Source: Picochlorum sp. SENEW3
Taxonomy: Eukaryota
NCBI GenBank assembly: GCA_034226945.1
Contig: CP120459.1
Span: forward strand, 744,001-808,000
Length of the DNA stretch: 64,000 nucleotides
Direction of reading: 5' to 3'
The first letter of the stretch is position 1. Every line of letters starts with the position of its first letter. Position numbers and translations under genes: made by a program. Shown here one piece after another: positions 15,596 through 25,936 of this stretch. The notes beneath the pieces were generated by a model, which had not been told where the DNA came from, made no database searches, and saw nothing but the letters and a program-made list of their open reading frames with translations.

Positions 15596-18299
15596 TTACT
15601 CATGTAAAAATGTGGATAATTTTTTAATTGTTCTGAGGCGGACCGAGGTGCTCATCCCAAGAGATTTGGCAGCCTGGAGAACCAGCTGGACATCAGCTGG
15701 GAATGTGCTGGAAATCTCGTCACATTCCTCCTCCGTCACGGTCTCTTCCTCTTCTGTTTCATGTTCATTAGATGGCATCGTTTGAGAATCCTGAACATAG
15801 GGAGAGAAGGCCAATGCTCGGGGGCCTTCCACTTTGGGTTTCTTTTTGCTCTTCTTTGATGTCTTTGATCTTGTACGTTTTCTGCCTAGGACATCTGCAA
15901 TAAATTCCTGTGGTGATTTCTTTCCATCTGGAATGCATTGTGCGATTCTAGGATCGCGATTTCTGGTCGATGATGGATCATACCAGTCATTGTTCGAGAC
16001 TGGCAATGCTGGAAATGACGCCAATTTTGTTGATCTACATAACAACAAGATGAATTTCAGTATACTGTTGGATTGCATGCCAAGGTATTCACTATCATGT
16101 GCCAACGTACTCGACAAATTTCCAAGCAGGAAAGGGACGTATCTCAAATGGAATACGCTCGGAAGTATCCTTTAGCGACGCTTCATTGAGAGTCTGCTCT
16201 ACAAGTCTATAGATTGGATAGCGAAGCTTTTGATGAACAGCTTCTGTAATTGTATACTTGTACTCCGTTGTGCTCAACTCCTGATCGTCCGATACTCTTG
16301 GAGTGACATCATTAATCCTATCAGATAGTTTGACAAGTGCTGGGTTTGCTCGCCAGGGCGGCAGGAAAATACTGTGATTCACTGAACACACAGTACAGGC
16401 TCCTTCTCCAAGGGAGTCTCCGCGCAGCTTTCTTGTATGACAATGAATAAAGTGAGCAAGCATGGACTTGATCGTAAAAGGGAAACAGGTTTTTACGATG
16501 GCAGTAAATTGTCGCCTGGCAATATGGCACGACCAGGCTGTGCGCATGCCTTCAAACCAGCTTGCTTCACCACTCCAGTCATACAGACACGAGCGCAAGG
16601 CTTTGAGTTTTCTATTCAAATCATTCGAGCCACTCTCTTGTTGTTGTTGTTGTTCTATGGATAGACTGAATTCGATATCCTGAATCACCGAATCACCGAA
16701 TTGACGTCGCTCATCCGTCAACAGGACGACATTGTAATGATCATTATGATCTTCTCCTTCACCTTGTGATGCACTGTCATGATTGGTTCCTTGCATTTGA
16801 GCGTCTCTCTCCTCAATAAACCGCATCAGACAACCATCGAATTCGTCAATGGATGATCCTAATTTCGAATGTTTCAAAATCTTGCCAGCTTGTAGGACGG
16901 TAGGATCCTTCTCCATCAAGGGCTCTAGTGGTTCCACTTGCATGCTCCAGTACTCATCGACAAATCTTTTGACATCTTCAATAGGTACATTCCTCTCGTC
17001 CAATCCATACTTTTCATCCACATCACCATACTCCCTCATTATTTGTTTCTGTATCGTTACAGACAAGTCTCCAGCCTTACAGGCTGGGGGCATACCTCTG
17101 CTAAGAATCTCAAAGACCCGTTCCCGCAGCTGCCCCTGTGGCCCAGACCACCGTGGAGCTTTACATTTTGGGCAAAATCTCTGTCTATCCGGGTTTTTCG
17201 ACCCACAAATAGTAGAGTCTTCTAATCTGTTGAAACACGTCCATCGGGGTATCTTGGTTCTTTTTACTCGCTGATTTAGAATGACAGACACCGTCGGTCG
17301 CTCATCATATGGGACATTGGGTATCCCCCACCTCTCATATTCCTCCTCACTTTCTTCTTCTTCTTCGTTTCTACTATTCTTTTGATTGTGATACTGATGC
17401 TTTAGTATCTGCAAACCACTTGGTTTTTCGCTCAGTGGGTCAGAAACGCTGCCAAACGTCTCTCTCCTACGAGGAACATCCAACACAGCAGGCTTCAAAC
17501 GATCCGGCAACCTTCCTTCTCGAATAGCGGCTGTCGTCAAACAATAATGACCGCACCCTTTCAAACGACATGTTCGACACGCCCCACAACGCAACCCCTT
17601 GCCCAGTCTCATACCATGACCAGACACTGGCTCATTCAGCTTGGAAGCAAGTGCAGCCACCGTCTCACCATCAACACCACCCAACTGTGCCTCCCATTCT
17701 TTCACCGCTTCCAGTGCCAAACAAGGTATTATCCTGAATCCCTTATCCTTGATACAATTAACGCACATCTGACATCGCTTTTTGAAACCAATAATGCCCT
17801 CCACCACCTCTTTGGGCACATTGTCAATCTCTGGAATAGGCAGCTTTGGAATCTTCTCTGGTGCCTGTGCAAGTTTCATCAACGTTGCATAATCCTGGTC
17901 TTCTTCATCACCTTCCCTCGAGGGAAGCCGTTCCCTATGCTCAGCCTCGTTGTCATCCTTTCTCCCCTCTGACTGCTCCCAACTACCTGTCCTCTTCTGC
18001 GCATTCTTCCCACCCTTCGGAATCCCCGCACGGCTCCCATGGGGATCATCTACTATAGCTAAATGAGAAAGATCATGATCCTTTGGATGACCGAGAAGCC
18101 GTGGCCACGTCCTGTAAATCTCCCTGGTATTCCTGTATTCTTCCCTAGCCCACTCACCCAGTAACGACGCAACCACCTTTCTGCATTATAGTACCACCAT
18201 GCATCATTGCATATCGATACATATCTAAATAATAGAGTATCATTGGATTCAGGCGTACCTGTACTCTTCCGCATCCACAAATTTGTCTCTGCCGTCCAT
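15596..18299 (-). CDS. Probable nuclear protein with two CXXC-like Zn fingers and a RanBP2-like Zn ribbon
   Basis: KKRCQMCVNC..PC, RCGACRTC..YC and WTC..C.SKN..FCPKCKAPR. Introns 18181-18258 and 16035-16110 join three exons in frame; basic NLS-like tail. Confidence 0.75.
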
Positions 18300-18983: not shown

Positions 18984-19791
18984 TTAGTTTTCCAAAAGGC
19001 ATTCCTTGCATGTTGGATCGATAACCTTGTTCTTGAACTTGGTCTTGCAGCATCCAACACAGTTCTCTGGGCCCCTACTGATGCATGTGGCTCCTGGTGG
19101 TCCCTCTCCGTCCTCAACAGTCCAGAAAATTGGGTATCCTGGGTGGCATGCCTTTTTGTAGCAAGAGAAGTCATTGAACTGGTAGTTCTGGAACTTGGTC
19201 TCGCAGCAAGCCACACAGTCCTCAGTGGTGTCGCAAGACTCACCAACCAGGACGTTGGTCTTCAACTTTGGATAGCACTCTGGCTTGTAGCAGGATGGAT
19301 CGAAGTAGCTGTTCTCAGAGAATTTAAGAGCGCAGCAAGCCTTGCAGTCCTCAGTGGTGTCGCATCTGTCTCCGAGGATGTCACCTTCTTCGCAGCCTGG
19401 ATCTGCACACGTCAGGTCCACCTTGCCAAAGTAGTTCTTAATCTGGCAGCACTTTGTGCACTCTTTGTACTCAATGCAGTCCTTGCCATACAAAGAGAGA
19501 ATCTCAACATCTCCGGCCCTGCATACATGAGACTCGACCAAGGTTGAAAAATTTTCCCGCCAACAGGTGCTCTGTGGCGTTGACCGCCAACACGATGCCA
19601 GCGAGGCCGATCAAATCACAGGCATCGGTCATGTACGCAATCAATTTTACTAATAGAATATAAAAGTGCATGTATTATTCGAGTATAAAGGCAAGTACAG
19701 ACACACGAACCAGGCGTTGACGTGTTGCGACATACCTTGCGTTTCCGGCAAACAAGAGAGCAATTGCAGCAATAGTTGTGAACTTGAACAT
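18984..19791 (-). CDS. Secreted cysteine-rich protein with four 6-Cys repeats
   Basis: Signal-peptide exon 19791-19736 (MFKFTTIAAIALLFAGNAR), intron 19519-19735, then four C-x5/7-C-x2-CC-x13/14-C-x2/4-C units. Confidence 0.8.
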
Positions 19792-19970
19792 ATTGACGAT
19801 GTTTGAATGAATTGTATGCTGTTTAAAATATGGATAGTAGAAAATTGTAATGATTACTCTACCAATGTGCGCATCTCTTGTGTGTGGCTCCACGAGATTC
19901 TCGATCAGCTCGAGGCATATGCAGCTGCAGTAGGAGTCAAACGGTGGTTGACCCTACAACAAATGGATTC

Positions 19971-22900
19971 CTACTCACCCAAAAACAGTTTGAATTTTTC
20001 ACGAATCTTCCTCACATTTTCTTCGCGTTGAAACTCATACGTTGTCATGATTGGCATTCTGGATGCAAGCTCAGATGCTCTCTTTGTGTTGAGAATTTCG
20101 TCTGCTGTCATGGTTCCTGTCAATGGTTCCTGCATAGCCTTCTTCAATCTCTCCCGCACTGCAGCCGCTTCCCCTGGCCAATCTTCAATATCACTCTGTA
20201 TAACAATGTGCTCGTCATGCTGCCAAAGGCGATGCATGCCAATTTCACCATCATCATATGCCACAGTGTGTTCTGTGCTGACTGGATCATACCAGCAAAT
20301 GACGCCCTCAAAGTACTCCTCATCTCCATCCCACCACACAGCGATTCGAGCGCCAATGGCATCTTCGCCACAGATGGCTAGTTGTGCTCCGGCATGACCA
20401 CCAAGGGCCGATGCTGTCATTCTCTGTGTCAAACAATCATGTCTCTTTGTACCCTGCATAAGAATCAAACAAACAAGATGTGGAGATACATGCTGGTCGG
20501 TTGGATGTACTCTTGGTAGAAAAAGACACGTACCACATAGGCATTCATACATGTTCTGCAACGACCGCATCTGCTCTTGAGGTCAACGCTGGCTGCAGCG
20601 GCAGCAGCTCTAGTCTGTCGCATCTTGTCAGTGGTGAGGCTGCTCTTCTTTTGTTTGACTTTGTGTGATTCGAGAGCATCCTGTAGTGCATGGCCGAGGA
20701 GATCGCTGTACTTGAATTTAGTATCTTTGATAGCAGCATGTGCCTCCTTTTCGTACTTTGTTCTGTGCTTGTCCCATGGAAGCAGGTCATCTGGGTGGTA
20801 CCACTGCCATTTCCCTGTGTTGATTGGGAAATACAAAACCAGTACCCTTCTGTGCTCAGAGCCTTCAGAATCTTTGGTGTCCCACATGCCATCGAGGGAT
20901 GTGATTGACGCTTTTTTCTGCTCAGGAGTCAGTTTGCTCAATGCATCTTTTGGCAGAGTCCTGCCAAGAGGCATGTGTTGAGGGTCCAGGACTTCTCCTG
21001 GCCAATATATACCAGACATAGGTTCTGGAGCCCATACAATGTCTCCAACCATTTCTGAATCGTCAATTATGCCCTTGAGCCTCGTAATTTCAACAGACTA
21101 CAGAAAGAGAGAGTTGCATGTGAACACACAAATAGGAATACAATGATTACGCCATGTGCCACCACATACCTTTGACGCAATATCCATACTCGAACCAGAC
21201 ATTCTTCTGAGAATATCATTCGATATATCCCAGCCTTTTTCTCTGAGACGATGAATGTATCCAGCCTTTTCCTCAGCAGAAGGACTCCGGCCAACTTGCT
21301 CAATGAAGTCATCCAAGGCTTGATATGGGCATGTGATTGGATATTCAGAGGATCGCTTCACAGCAAAGGCACCGATGCCACTCTGCCACCACGCAGATTT
21401 TGGCCATGTTGATTTCTCCCATGTTTGCACCTTTTCTTTCGAAGAGCTTTGAACGAGTCCTTTCCTGATCTTTTTGACCATTCGCGCCTGAAAGGCATCC
21501 TTGTACACTTTCAAATCGCTTCCTGATTCAGAACCAGAGACTACAGGCCTCTCCCCTGTTTTCATCGGAGTAATAGCACTTGGCTCTGAGTCTGATGCGG
21601 GTCCCTTGTCTTGACTGGTATGAGACGATTTGGAAGAACTCTTCTCAGCGCCTGGACTCTCAGTGTCGGTGCCTGTTTTGCCTGCAAGCTGCTCCACATC
21701 TTGAATTTCATGCAATTTTGCTCTCTTAAACTCTCGACTCTCTTTAAAAGAAAATATTGCAGCCTCCTGAATCTCATCTGCAGTAATAAAGCTCCAAACG
21801 TTTGGTCTCCTGCAAATCACACACATGCATCAGTGTCAGTCATCTTGATAGATGCAATGCAAATTTCACCATATTCTGCACACGTACTTTAAAACCTGTT
21901 GTTTTGGTTCAGGTACGCCTTCTTTGAGAAGATGATGTATAGCATGATTACCCTGAGCGAGCCTGTATTTATGCGCATATGGATGCATGAGACGCTCTCC
22001 AAGCCACCGAGCAACATGTACAGTAACAGCATTCCCCAACAATTGCCACCTCCTCGACGAATGTGTTTCCAAATCCATCTCTTTGTACGGAACTCTTCTG
22101 TGCGCAGAAACGCCTTCTGCAGTCACAGGGAAACACGGCTTTGTCCAACCTTCTGGGAAGCCTTGCAATCTCTCTGCATCCTCCACACGCAACATGCCAG
22201 TTCGCCCATCCGCGAGGAGCAACAAGATACGATCATTCGCCGTCGTAAAAGAAGGTATGATATCTTCACCGGGTCTACATCTGCATTGAATAGTATATTA
22301 TGATATGTCGAACGTGCATACAAGATAACAATAATGATGAACACATACATGGCACACCCCAGATCGATAGCGAACGATACATTCTCATTAGAATTCCGCT
22401 GCTTTAACGTCTCAAGATGACACTCGTAGCATTCATTGTCCTCAAACAATTGCTTGCAAGATCCTGGACATGATTGCATGCCTTGGGAGAGAAGCACATC
22501 TCTGGCATCCCCATGCATTGATGCCACAATGAAAACACGCCTCCGCCTCATGGGCACACCAAACCCTGCATCCACACCATGGATTTGTATGTATCAGCGC
22601 TCTCCTTGTCTATTATATAATATTTCCTAGGAACGCACCTGCTGACGAAACAACCCGATATGCCCACGATGAAAACCCAAGATCCATCAACTGCTGCACC
22701 ACAAAGGCAATGGCTGGAGGCTGATCATCCGCTCGATCCAACAGTGCTTCCACCTACACACATGCATCATTCTTATTTATTGTACATGATGAGAGCCAGA
22801 TGCTATACTACTACTGAAGCATCTCCTCTCACATGGTATAAACACAAGGCCAACATACATTTTCCAAAAGGACCCAATTCACTGGCCTGTTTCTGTCCTT

Positions 22901-23602
22901 GGCAACTTGCAACAAACGAAACACATGCCTCACCAAGCCAGTACTCTGCATCATTATCATCATTATTATTATCGCATGGTATATATACATCAAGTTGGGG
23001 AACAGCATACCTGGCCTTCCAATCCCCTTCGCAAACCAGCCCTGGACACATCAATACATGGAAACCCTGCCACCAACAGCTCCGTATCCTGCATACATTC
23101 ATCTTCAAAATCTTCATACGAGAAAATAAAATTGAGAAAAAATTGGGTCACATACATCTGGCAAAGCTTCCACAGCACACACATCATGAGACAACCGAAC
23201 ACCAGGAAAATGCTCCTTCAACACCTACACCACACAACAAACATTGGCAACTCGTACCAACACATCCATCATGAACGAGTACAACCATACCTGCCTCGCT
23301 CCTGGATCACTCTCACAGAGAAAAATCAGTTCATGACCAGCCTGCAAGACACACACACACACCCGTCAATCCACCACCATGCACACAGAGCATTCAAATC
23401 ATGGTTACAGTTATACCCGACCAGCGCCGCGTGTACTCCACTACTGCGCAGTCTTTGTCCTACTATTTCCCCAACCATAAAAACCCATTTCAAATAACAG
23501 ACTGTACGTGATTCATATGCAGCCAAAACACACCGTGACTCATACCTGTTCAAGCCCATAATCCAATCCTCCAGCACCAGAGAACAAACTAGCGAATTTC
23601 AT
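19971..23602 (-). CDS. DNA (cytosine-5) methyltransferase fused to PWWP, CXXC and Tudor/PWWP-like domains (chlorophyte-type)
   Basis: Spliced motifs: I (SLFSGAGG), IV (GFPC), VI (LLEN|V), VIII (PMRRRRVF), IX (ERLQGFP) and X (LGNAV). These are followed by GDIVW..YWPG, RCGRCRTC..HDC and IAVWW..YDDGE. At least 10 introns; a further exon ending at 19905 is possible. Confidence 0.9.
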
Positions 23603-24225
23603 CTCAAATAGTATCGACTACACCGAAGAAAAGTATATAGATATCAGGTGATTTAGAATGTATATTCAAACATGCACGGTGACGTCACCTGAGCAAGGCA
23701 ATGTTGCGTCAGAGTCCTGACGGGTCTGGAGGCGCTCTTTCTTCCCTCCGAAAGCCCTTGTTCCACTGGCTGATTGGAACAATGACTGCCCAGGACTCCT
23801 TCTTCCTTGCCTCCACATGTGCTCATCCGATGCATGATCCAGTGTGTCTGATGGTATTCATAGAGAGAATCAGTCGCCCTTCTTCCTGTGACAGGTACAT
23901 GTGGCATGTACATGCCAGAAGAGTGGTCCAAGTGTCCAGACGAATGAATGAACAGCAGCCAACCTGGATGCCTTGGTATCTTTTTCTTTGGCGTAAAGAG
24001 GGGAAAATTTTTATTTTGAATTCAACATAAGCCAATACGTACGTATAATAGGGCATTCTGGGGGCTGTCGTTGCACCATTCTCTGCTCAAGGACGTGAAC
24101 GAGTTTGGTCCAATTTGATTCGGTATATATGGTTATTCGATAACTATTCTTCCACTAGATATTTTGATCTGGGTATAGGACACGTCTGCTGTGAAATACC
24201 CTCAGGGATTGACCAGAGAAGGGCG

Positions 24226-25936
24226 ATGCATAGCCAGACGACGCCAGGTCGACAGGGCGAGGAGCCCTTGAGTGATGAGGCTTTGGAAGCGATGCGAGGT
24301 CCACATATTCATCATGGACCAGCGACATCGGTCCAGCAGGACGATAGCATTGCGGCTCAGGTGAATGAGCATAACAATGCAGAGCGTTACAGCACGGTGG
24401 ATGACGTTCTCGAGAGTCGACAGCGATTTTCTGCCACAAACATCAACATTCCATTCCAACAACGACATCAGCAGCAATTTTCATCGGTGTCGGTGTCTGA
24501 GGGAGTGGCTTCTGCCGGACATCCCCCAGTGGCAAGTTTGGATCGCATGGGGGAGTTTGTACCAGGAGAGGTTGGGCTGACTGGGATGTATGAGGGTGAG
24601 GCAACTGGGATGTATGACCCAGTGGGGGCGTGGCATGGGTATGTGGATGCGGATACGAATACGCCGACAGCCACGCATGGTCCAAGGCCTGGGGGGCAGC
24701 AGGAGCAGCAGGATGATGGGTGTGGGGCGGCGAGTCCGATGGATGTGCAGGATTTTCGGAAAAGTCGGGATGGGTCTGTGTTTGGTGCCTGTAGCGATTT
24801 GGAGGGGAATGAGAGCACTGGGCAGCAGATGGATGGCGTTGGTGCGCAGCAAGTATCATCTGAAATGGCCATGGTGACTGGGTTGAGCGATGGGGAGAAC
24901 GAGCAGCCGTCGTTGGCTGGGCATCGTCGAAACACAACGGAACCTACAGATAGTAATATTGGATGTATTGGTCTGGGGAATACTGGTGGGGAGGGGGAGA
25001 TTCAGGCCAGTGCATCATTTAAAGATAGGCCATCAGATGCTGATATTATAGCATGGGAGAATCAGATACGCGAGGGGGAGGCGAATAAATCCCCTCTGAT
25101 TGGAAACAAATGCTCAATTGATACTCTGTGGGATGAGTATGCGGCGGGGAATGAGGTTTTCAAGGCCAAGATCACCACTCTTGCATCGACATATGGGTCA
25201 ATCAGGAGGTCTCGAGGGGATGGAAACTGCTTCTTTCGATCGTTTATATTCTCATATCTGGAACACTTGGTACAGACGAAGGATGAAGAAGAGAAGAATC
25301 GAATGACATCTACACTGACGTCGTTGCGCACGTTACTCGTGAAAGCTGGATATGAAGAGTTGGTTCTTGAGGGGCCAATGGAGCTCCTGCTTGGCATGCT
25401 GTCTTCGATTCAAGATTCCTCGAATCCTCTTAGCATTGAAACACTGGAAAACAATATGAGGTCTGAAGAAATTTCGAACTATATTGTATTTTTATTGCGA
25501 ATCATAACGAGTGCGGAAGTGAAAGACAAGGCAAACTTTTTTGCCCCATTCATCATGGTATGTTTGCTTGATGTGCCCTTGTTGTACTGGACACCCACGT
25601 CAATAGCCATACTTGTTTCGTGTACAGGGGCTGACAGATATGGCTGTTGATGAATTTTGCTCAAAATGTATTGATCCCATGGGCGAAGAGAGCGAACATG
25701 TTCAGGTTGTTGCTCTCACCAATGCATTACGAGTGCCCATCCGTGTGGTGTACTTGGACAGGTCTACCATGGCCGCGAGTGGAGCATCGAATACATGCGA
25801 TTCATCAGACAGCCCTCTGAGTGCTGATACGCACGACTTTATCCCTGAAGGATGTTCTGTTTCGGCGGATGACATACGAGTGCACCTGTTGTATCGCCCA
25901 GGCCACTATGATATTTTGTACAAGAAGAATTTCTAA
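24226..25936 (+). CDS. Otubain-family (peptidase C65) deubiquitinase with a long disordered N-terminus
   Basis: RGDGNCFFRSF and LLYRPGHYDILY motifs; intron 25558-25627. Confidence 0.92.

Follow-up and report, generated by a model that had tools for sequence, protein, structure and literature searches.

How do algae that lack DNMT3 establish DNA methylation? One candidate is a lineage of C5 cytosine methyltransferases that has been named ChloroDNMT. Here we analyze a gene that fits this lineage in a 64,000-nucleotide (nt) stretch of the genome of Picochlorum sp. SENEW3 (GCA_034226945.1, contig CP120459.1, positions 744,001 to 808,000), which we call the window. The gene lies on the minus strand at 23602..19971 (all positions are those of the window), and its predicted product joins a bacterial-type methylase to a PWWP domain, a four-cysteine knuckle, and a Tudor domain. 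On the basis of its sequence, we consider that it probably encodes a nuclear enzyme of the ChloroDNMT lineage in Picochlorum (Trebouxiophyceae), which would deposit 5-methylcytosine (5mC) de novo in nuclear DNA under the guidance of its reader domains. The locus provides a clean full-length gene with transcript support.

One gene and one transcript

Joining the stop-free frames at GT..AG sites gives an open reading frame of 2,754 nt that encodes 917 amino acids (aa), from an ATG at 23602-23600 to a TAG stop codon at 19973-19971. The model has 11 exons and 10 introns, all with GT..AG ends; from intron 1 to intron 10, the lengths are 204, 66, 67, 65, 105, 73, 68, 78, 72, and 80 nt. An earlier note on this stretch of DNA had placed the gene at 19971..23602. 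Those coordinates are exact, with the ATG and the stop codon at the two ends.

Transcript evidence comes from public sequencing runs: 13 of the 14 runs that were listed contain at least part of the stretch. One of them (X3) contains a single intron-free contig of 2,946 nt, which extends from 19825 to 23663 and covers all 11 exons. The contig omits nine segments, each bounded by CT..AC on the plus strand, that correspond to introns 1-3 and 5-10 to the base, within the slack of the tool. The joint for intron 4 was filtered out at a low-complexity repeat, and the contig has exactly 198 letters between exons 5 and 1, which is the combined length of exons 2, 3, and 4 (51 + 69 + 78). Because this copy is intron-free and its segments end exactly at the splice sites, the catalytic and reader parts are on one mRNA, and the methylase is a real, expressed single gene. 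The type of run X3 is unrecorded, and we took it to be RNA by guess; the contig says nothing about the level of expression. It comes from another strain, since about 2% of its letters differ from the window.

In the other runs, X10 has the whole stretch in one contig with zero differences and could be the DNA from which the window was derived, and X1 is DNA-like, with contigs that continue through introns. Two runs that are on record as RNA (X7 and X8) cover only small shares of the stretch and carry no splicing information. One contig from X7, a sediment metagenome, covers 22427-22610 and extends 45 nt into intron 6; the other X7 contigs are exonic. This contig is either unspliced RNA or carry-over of DNA into the library.

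Could the catalytic and reader parts be two adjacent genes that were wrongly joined? Gene models are indeed unreliable here: the deposited SENEW3 model (2,235 aa) fuses four genes, and another database model (P0002) spans only the C-terminal 444 aa. However, the X3 contig spans all of the exons in one frame, the model has neither a stop codon nor a long gap between the two parts, and the same order of parts is found in the 917-aa model from Picochlorum sp. BPE23 and in at least six relatives at 57-60% identity. A wrong join is hardly credible. The earlier note had described both parts as one gene and had named their separation in cDNA as a result that would refute it; the contig instead joins them in one open frame.

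The BPE23 protein (KAI8106218.1, 917 aa) is 97.9% identical to our model across all 917 residues, without gaps. The model is also identical to the first 885 residues of WPT16348.1 (2,235 aa, Picochlorum sp. SENEW3), which is titled "Putative BsuMI modification methylase subunit YdiP," save for one 32-residue gap at intron 8. WPT16348.1 uses another intron 8, which removes these 32 residues; the X3 contig agrees with our intron 8. WPT16348.1 (14128-23602, minus strand) runs on from the methylase into three other genes (to 14128), two of which encode a small cysteine-rich protein and an 851-aa protein, and all three are annotated separately in BPE23. The BPE23 annotation and the spliced contig favor separate genes, so WPT16348.1 is a chimera, and our model corrects it.

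The catalytic core and its bacterial relatives

The core is predicted to be a complete bacterial Dcm-type C5 methylase with intact catalytic motifs. In database proteins that are 97.6% and 97.9% identical to the window protein, Pfam PF00145 scores 75.4 bits on the former (P0001; cut-off 22), and NCBIfam TIGR00675 (dcm) scores 106.1 on the latter (P0016; cut-off 100.65). Single exons of the window score low on PF00145 because the domain is divided among exons (exon 4 alone scores 20.9 bits). The motifs lie in the canonical order: FSGAGG at residues 7-12, PC at 69-70, ENV at 113-115, RRRR at 159-162, QGFPEGW at 264-270, and GNAV at 307-310. Motifs I, IV, VI, and VIII align with M.HhaI, with Pro69-Cys70 on its PC, Glu113-Asn114-Val115 on its ENV, and Arg160 and Arg162 on the motif VIII arginines; motifs IX and X are invariant in an alignment of relatives. 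Overall, the catalytic motifs are invariant or nearly so among the aligned relatives. The roles of these residues are established for the C5 methylase class. Thus, the earlier claim that the catalytic domain begins at Met1 agrees with the position of motif I, and the motifs that it listed as intact (FSGAGG, PC, ENV, the arginine motif, and GNAV) are all in the model.

Comparison to all PDB sequences gives the same picture. P0016 has 18 distinct matches at E ≤0.01, which include M.HhaI (4.6e-12), M.HaeIII (1.3e-9), 4dkj/8c56 (about 6e-5), DNMT2 (about 5e-4), and the Tudor domain of 7de9. A profile of 13 relatives has 14 matches, among them 4dkj/8c56 (about 6e-8) and M.HhaI (3e-5). The best solved catalytic matches are M.HhaI, M.HaeIII, and M.MpeI. 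Neither search has a DNMT1 or DNMT3 chain at E ≤0.01, and full-length relatives have no Pfam match to the ADD domain. With its readers at the C terminus, no ADD match, and no DNMT3 chain among the 18 or the 14 PDB matches, the protein would not be classified as a DNMT3.

We then scanned 1.84 billion representatives for relatives and found 25,655 proteins at E ≤0.001, including 253 at E ≤1e-30. The top matches are long proteins (600-1,160 aa). Past about E = 1e-50, the matches are mostly shorter, at about 400 aa, with 40-48% identity across residues 1-328. One of these (P0143) represents a large bacterial family: 586 of 605 matched stretches encode a relative, and all 80 of the loci that were kept have bacterial titles, including Gaiellaceae, Rhodococcus, Solirubrobacterales, and Planctomycetota. 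Two bacterial loci were inspected; in one, an unknown gene and a gene for a Vsr mismatch endonuclease lie immediately downstream, and the other lies amid housekeeping genes. The closest non-eukaryotic relatives are bacterial, which, together with the Vsr gene at one locus, we counted in favor of a DNA substrate and not an RNA substrate. The earlier note's term "bacterial-style" is apt: besides the solved structures, bacterial relatives are 40-45% identical over residues 1-328.

The similarity to bacterial enzymes extends beyond the core. After motif X, residues ~345-483 are a variable low-complexity stretch, and in a structural model of exon 9, the predicted local distance difference test (pLDDT) score is below 50 at exon residues 45-94 and is 79-93 at exon residues 140-205. 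Past this linker is a "WPK" block, which in the alignment lies directly after the core in the bacterial-like proteins and in several other eukaryotic members. We built a profile from 47 tails of proteins that were picked by their length (340-480 aa) and by the lack of a cysteine cluster; only the P0143 family among these was verified as bacterial. This profile scores 43.7 bits at residues 484-548 of the window protein (E = 1.2e-9, with a nominal million sequences), whereas none of 440 shuffled controls exceeds 4.2 bits. Because of this match, we conclude that the whole bacterial enzyme, including its C-terminal domain, was carried over and that the disordered linker was inserted later. As for the fold of the WPK domain, Foldseek with the exon 9 model found no match at E ≤0.001 (the best was 1.5), which is no proof of a new fold. 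VIA-align against 48,161 chains found none at Z ≥5, with the rows listed spanning only a helix at residues 1-52, and a search of the protein Atlas gave no usable match.

The eukaryotic proteins have another addition in the target-recognition region: four cysteines (Cys185, Cys189, Cys198, and Cys201) are invariant in 13 of 13 relatives and are missing from the aligned bacterial-like relatives. This cluster is probably a zinc site. In sum, the algal protein resembles bacterial Dcm-type methylases in the order of its motifs from residue 1, in its identity across residues 1-328, and in its "WPxAAW" domain. Unlike them, its gene has spliceosomal introns, and it has a disordered linker of ~140 residues, the four-cysteine cluster, and ~350 residues of readers.

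The reader module and its proposed role

The earlier note had placed the readers at the C terminus, and the PWWP domain, the knuckle, and the Tudor domain are all downstream of the catalytic domain. The PWWP call stands: PF00855 matches exon 10 with 34.8 bits, above the Pfam cut-off of 25.6, and the domain has an insert of ~45 residues. A search of the PDB with the PWWP exon alone found nothing at E ≤1 beyond a chance row. When exon 10 was the query in a protein search, 13 of 1,641 candidates matched at E ≤0.001; seven of the 13 have a precomputed match to PF00145, and five of those seven also have a PWWP domain. A relative was found in Trebouxia as well.

The Tudor-like domain of the earlier note is also recognizable, as exon 11 matches 7de9_A with E = 1.3e-9 (phmmer). 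PDB entry 7DE9 is the Tudor domain of Arabidopsis RDM15 with a peptide of histone H3 monomethylated at lysine 4 (H3K4me1). In RDM15, the cage is formed by Trp616, Tyr623, and Tyr641, Asp643 and Asp645 select the monomethyl state, and Glu647 and Gln654 contact H3R2 (PMC8184781). The aromatic cage is kept in the window protein, as Trp798, Phe805, and Tyr823. Asp643 corresponds to Asp825, and Asp645 is replaced conservatively by Glu827. We also considered the structural model of a relative (P0121) that is ~65% identical over this stretch; it was built from a 23-sequence alignment and has a mean pLDDT of 81, with 92-98 in the barrel. When this model was compared to the PDB with Foldseek, 7de9 ranked first (E = 9.9e-5, TM 0.84, root mean square deviation 1.1 Å over 54 columns), and the next matches were the Tudor domains of PHF1, PHF19, and 53BP1. 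Thus, the algal domain is like that of RDM15/PDS5C in its cage residues and, judging from the relative's model, in its fold. Unlike in RDM15/PDS5C, the algal Tudor always follows a four-cysteine knuckle, and it is in a methylase instead of a cohesin-associated protein.

The knuckle consists of CGxCxxC, 11 residues, and another cysteine, which leaves room for one zinc. Its cysteines are invariant among the aligned relatives, with pLDDT of 84-92 in the relative's model. The earlier note had called this region a CXXC domain, and this part of its description did not hold up. A canonical CXXC finger has two CGxCxxC clusters with eight zinc-binding cysteines, while the algal knuckle has a single CGxCxxC and four cysteines. 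PF02008 (zf-CXXC) has no match in exons 10 and 11 (E up to 1) or in any of four full-length relatives (E up to 0.1), and no CXXC structures are among the Foldseek matches shown for the P0121 model. The knuckle does share the CGxCxxC, a basic loop, and the fourth cysteine with CXXC fingers, and presumably it resembles their second zinc cluster.

Conservation within the protein is highest from the knuckle through the Tudor domain, a stretch that is near-invariant among relatives that are 60-64% identical overall. A methylase and this Tudor occur together in at least 22 of the 150 representatives that were listed; this count is a lower bound, as are the other domain counts in this set, because the domain profiles were built solely from close relatives and fail to pick up divergent PWWP and WPK domains. 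One relative (P0149, 902 aa) has the C-terminal part of the methylase, WPK, SAND matches (best E = 5.7e-5), and two copies of the knuckle and Tudor. The knuckle and Tudor unit appears to move as a module. Another cluster (P0104/P0245) has a methylase remnant, WPK, PWWP, knuckle, Tudor, and, by eye, a PHD-like end. It includes an entry that is labeled as the haptophyte Diacronema lutheri; Supplementary Table 1 of PMC12344493 gives 0 ChloroDNMT for Diacronema. This entry could be a truncated model, contamination of the culture, or a sign that the family extends beyond the green lineage.

How does this protein relate to what has been described? The ChloroDNMT lineage was introduced in one sentence of a paper in Mol Biol Evol in 2025 (PMC12344493): these are C5 methylases from chlorophytes and charophytes that fall outside DNMT1, -2, -3, -5, and -6, often with a PWWP domain. 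In the literature that we searched, only this paper and its preprint mention ChloroDNMT. Part 2 of the paper's Supplementary Table 1 gives ChloroDNMT in 13 green species, from the genera Chlorella, Coccomyxa, Ulva, Caulerpa, Dunaliella, Ostreococcus, Micromonas, Nephroselmis, Klebsormidium, Mesotaenium, and Spirogloea, and gives 0 for Chlamydomonas and Volvox; Picochlorum is not in this part of the table. The window protein fits the lineage by its host and its PWWP domain. Like the proteins of this lineage, it is a C5 methylase from a chlorophyte with PWWP, and it probably falls outside DNMT1/2/3/5/6. Indirect support for this comes from the lack of DNMT1 and DNMT3 chains at E ≤0.01 in the PDB searches and from the nearest Atlas clusters, which are chlorophyte proteins with methylase and PWWP.

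The Tudor domain, the knuckle, the cysteines in the target-recognition region, and the bacterial C-terminal domain of the Picochlorum protein go beyond the text of that paper. The word "Tudor" has 0 occurrences in this text, which names PWWP only; the drawing in its Fig. 1c may show more. Similarly, the methyltransferase passages of the MSH6 preprint describe no fusion of methylase, Tudor, and PWWP in Chlorophyta. Thus, this is a new member of a known family without a bench study, and its extra features are absent from the literature text that we searched. They comprise a near-invariant Tudor of the H3K4me1-reader type, the knuckle that always accompanies it, and a whole bacterial enzyme within a chromatin protein.

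If the domains act as their relatives do, then a mechanism can be proposed. The core would methylate C5 of cytosine in DNA, with S-adenosylmethionine bound at FSGAGG and Cys70 attacking the flipped-out base. The Tudor domain would retain the enzyme on nucleosomes with a low-methylation lysine mark, for which H3K4me1 is our best guess, and PWWP would assist via H3K36 methylation or DNA. New methylation, probably at CpG, would be placed away from promoters that are marked by H3K4me3, and the DNMT1-like enzyme of the genus would then maintain it. We liken the role of the Tudor to that of the ADD domain, which reads unmethylated H3K4 and holds DNMT3 off promoters. Histone-mark-guided methylation, as the earlier note proposed, is a reasonable reading of the domains. 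Also, the enzyme is predicted not to be organellar, because it has no N-terminal extension and there is an in-frame TAG stop codon (23620-23618) 18 nt upstream of Met1.

Data from other algae are relevant to this proposal. In P. soloecismus, 12.1% of CpG is methylated, with a bimodal distribution, and methylation of CHG and CHH is below 1%; it has two C5-methylase genes, one of which is DNMT1-like (PMC7593850). The other is probably the orthologue of the window gene. In Chlamydomonas, H3K4me1 is the default histone state outside the starts and ends of genes (10.1101/2021.09.19.460975), and therefore, a reader of H3K4me1 would keep the enzyme off promoters. The function would be akin to that of animal DNMT3, built independently from a bacterial enzyme. 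DNMT3A/3B (PWWP-ADD-methylase) also combine a cytosine methylase with PWWP and a second reader of the histone H3 tail; unlike in DNMT3A/3B, the algal domains are in the reverse order, there is no ADD match, and the catalytic domains are not close. The PWWP of ChloroDNMT was likely acquired independently (PMC12344493). By this analogy, animal DNMT3 is likely a functional analogue of the algal enzyme, which would be a compact case of histone reading that was coupled to DNA methylation independently and convergently. We also put forward a fuller version, which is doubtful as a whole: green algae without DNMT3 may have rebuilt the same logic from a bacterial methylase of the restriction-modification type, with a Tudor that reads H3K4me1 in place of ADD and that, together with PWWP, makes the enzyme the de novo CpG methylase behind the bimodal methylome of Picochlorum, and with the knuckle as a new single-zinc contact to DNA or histone. 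Nuclear transformation has been reported in P. renovo (PMC6811619).

Several observations weigh against this reader-guided role. By eye, the PWWP motif is IYWP with a glycine three residues before the Trp, where many PWWP cages carry an aromatic residue. In the Tudor domain, the arginine pocket is not conserved, with Gly829 and His836 at the positions of the H3R2 contacts Glu647 and Gln654; because of this, and because Asp645 is changed to Glu, specificity for H3K4me1 is not assured. Pfam's PTM_DIR17_Tudor (PF21743) scores just 14.4 in the window protein, below its cut-off of 27.2; it is above the cut-off in two relatives (28.4 in P0107 and 32.8 in P0149). The P. soloecismus data show 4.95 methylated CpG per kb in gene bodies and 5.8-6.4 in promoters, terminators, and intergenic regions (PMC7593850), and since methylated CpG is no denser in gene bodies, this argues against strict targeting to gene bodies. 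Finally, DNA-methylated islands in Chlamydomonas lack H3 lysine methylation (10.1101/2021.09.19.460975), but this alga has no ChloroDNMT (PMC12344493).

The readers might instead bind repressive chromatin, so that the enzyme would silence transposons and foreign DNA and would not be a genome-wide writer that avoids promoters. Repressive 5mC on repeats and viral genes has been proposed to be ancestral in eukaryotes (PMC12344493), and H3K4me1 has been termed a repressive mark in Chlamydomonas (PMC11463267). However, no result here ties the protein to repeats. Also, single Tudor domains of this fold differ in the mark that they read (H3K36me3 for PHF1 and H3K4me1 for RDM15), so the sequence of the Tudor does not reveal its mark. 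On balance, we consider silencing to be unlikely.

It seems more improbable still that the protein is a site-specific methylase with a short motif of the bacterial type, which marks the alga's own DNA (for example, against viral restriction) and whose readers merely hold chromatin. Algal viruses carry restriction-modification systems, the core and the C-terminal domain are 40-45% identical to bacterial enzymes, and a Vsr gene is present at one bacterial locus. However, the high conservation of the reader module does not fit, and the methylation of P. soloecismus, which is bimodal and falls mainly on CpG, does not cover all copies of a single motif. Viral contigs have no close relative: none contains any of six 8-residue patterns from P0016, which is a narrow test that covers close relatives only. 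Within that scope, the scan also gives no support to a viral origin of the gene. Because the eukaryotic members gained the four-cysteine cluster in the target-recognition region, the specificity has probably changed. Finally, methylation of RNA, or binding to chromatin after a loss of catalysis, would be very surprising: the PDB matches do include a weak one to the tRNA methylase DNMT2 (E = 4.7e-4), but every catalytic motif is intact and invariant, the families linked to RNA (DNMT2 and DNMT6) are said to have no companion domains (PMC12344493), and genomic context marks the bacterial relatives as DNA enzymes.

Introns, coordinates, and neighboring genes

Ten introns are unusual for this genus, because the two downstream genes appear to have one each and the mean in P. 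renovo is 1.2 introns per gene (PMC6811619). When we mapped the two downstream genes with their BPE23 proteins, each gave two blocks, which suggests one intron in each. (The GC content of the window, ~46%, also fits the genus, with 46.2% in P. renovo [PMC6811619].)

We compared intron positions across relatives' loci from metagenome contigs; nine loci were returned and seven were mapped. Introns 1 and 2 are shared with a relative at ~55-60% identity whose remaining gene is a single exon (L082), introns 3 and 8 with one at 65-79% identity (L081), intron 9 with one at ~50% identity (L083), and intron 10 with two at ~50-57% identity (L086 and L087). So, 6 of the 10 positions recur in relatives, and some relatives have introns that the window gene lacks. 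Introns 4-7 were compared only with L081 and L082, both of which lack them. The six recurring positions predate this species, and since they recur, the high intron count mostly reflects old introns that were retained. Most simply, the gene kept ancestral introns in a genome that lost most others; that low expression led to fewer cDNA-mediated losses, and hence to retention, is a guess. Recent gain from repeated "introner" elements was considered and rejected, as six positions are old and the introns match neither each other nor other places in the window, apart from one 15-nt chance match (E = 0.005). The earlier note had counted at least 10 introns and had presented their density as exceptional. 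The count is exactly 10 and is high relative to the neighbors, but with six old positions it did not arise as a recent peculiarity.

Exons 1-5 are tiny (57, 51, 69, 78, and 87 nt; 22859-23602, minus strand), and each of them starts and ends in phase 0; therefore, the frame survives the skipping of any one of them. Coordinates of the gene's features are given in Table 1.

Table 1. Features of the methylase gene, in coordinates of the window
Feature	Position	Strand	Basis
5' untranslated region, minimum extent	23603..23663	-	X3 contig reaches 23663, collinear with genome
Exon 1, residues 1-19; start codon and motif I (FSGAGG)	23546..23602	-	Model; X3 joint 23340/23545 (+1)
Exon 2, residues 20-36	23291..23341	-	Model and X3 contig; intron-2 position common to L082
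Exon 3, residues 37-59	23156..23224	-	Model and X3 contig; intron-3 position common to L081
Exon 4, residues 60-85; motif IV, catalytic Pro69-Cys70	23011..23088	-	Pfam PF00145 E 2.8e-4 (exon alone); alignment to PC of M.HhaI
Exon 5, residues 86-114; end splits ENV (Asn114/Val115)	22859..22945	-	Model; X3 joint 22751/22857 (+2)
Exon 6, residues 115-153	22639..22753	-	Model and X3 contig
Exon 7, residues 153-225; motif VIII (Arg160, Arg162), first target-recognition part	22349..22565	-	Model, X3 contig, and M.HhaI alignment
Four-cysteine cluster in target-recognition region (Cys185, Cys189, Cys198, Cys201), probable zinc site	22420..22470	-	Alignments with relatives
Exon 8, residues 225-356; remaining target-recognition region, motif IX, motif X (GNAV, 22025-22036)	21888..22280	-	Model and X3 contig; intron-8 position common to L081
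Exon 9, residues 356-569; low-complexity linker, then WPK domain	21170..21809	-	Model and X3 contig; pLDDT
WPK C-terminal domain of bacterial-type enzyme, residues ~484-560	21197..21427	-	Bacterial-tail profile match, residues 484-548
Exon 10, residues 570-757; PWWP with long insert and first three knuckle cysteines	20534..21097	-	Model and X3 contig
PWWP domain, residues 587-713, motif IYWP	20666..21046	-	Pfam PF00855, 34.8 bits (cut-off 25.6)
Four-cysteine knuckle CGxCxxC...C (Cys746, Cys749, Cys752, Cys764), divided by intron 10	20433..20569	-	Invariant in alignment of relatives
Exon 11, residues 758-917 and stop codon; Tudor and C-terminal helix	19971..20453	-	Model and X3 contig
RDM15/PDS5C-type Tudor, residues ~784-842	20199..20375	-	PDB 7de9_A E 1.3e-9; Foldseek on model of relative P0121
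3' untranslated region, minimum extent	19825..19970	-	X3 contig end at 19825

Downstream of the methylase, at 18987-19791 on the minus strand, is a gene for a 196-aa cysteine-rich protein whose start resembles a signal peptide and whose cysteine-rich modules are repeated; it matches no Pfam family and maps in two blocks. Two places downstream (15599-18299, minus strand) is the gene for P0015, which is 851 aa in BPE23. It has two CxxCxxC-type motifs that resemble the methylase knuckle, and its only Pfam match is a weak one to a zinc ribbon (E = 0.0057). The upstream neighbor (24052-25650, plus strand) encodes a deubiquitinase of the otubain type (Pfam Peptidase_C65, E = 6.2e-38), whose N-terminal region is long and of low complexity.

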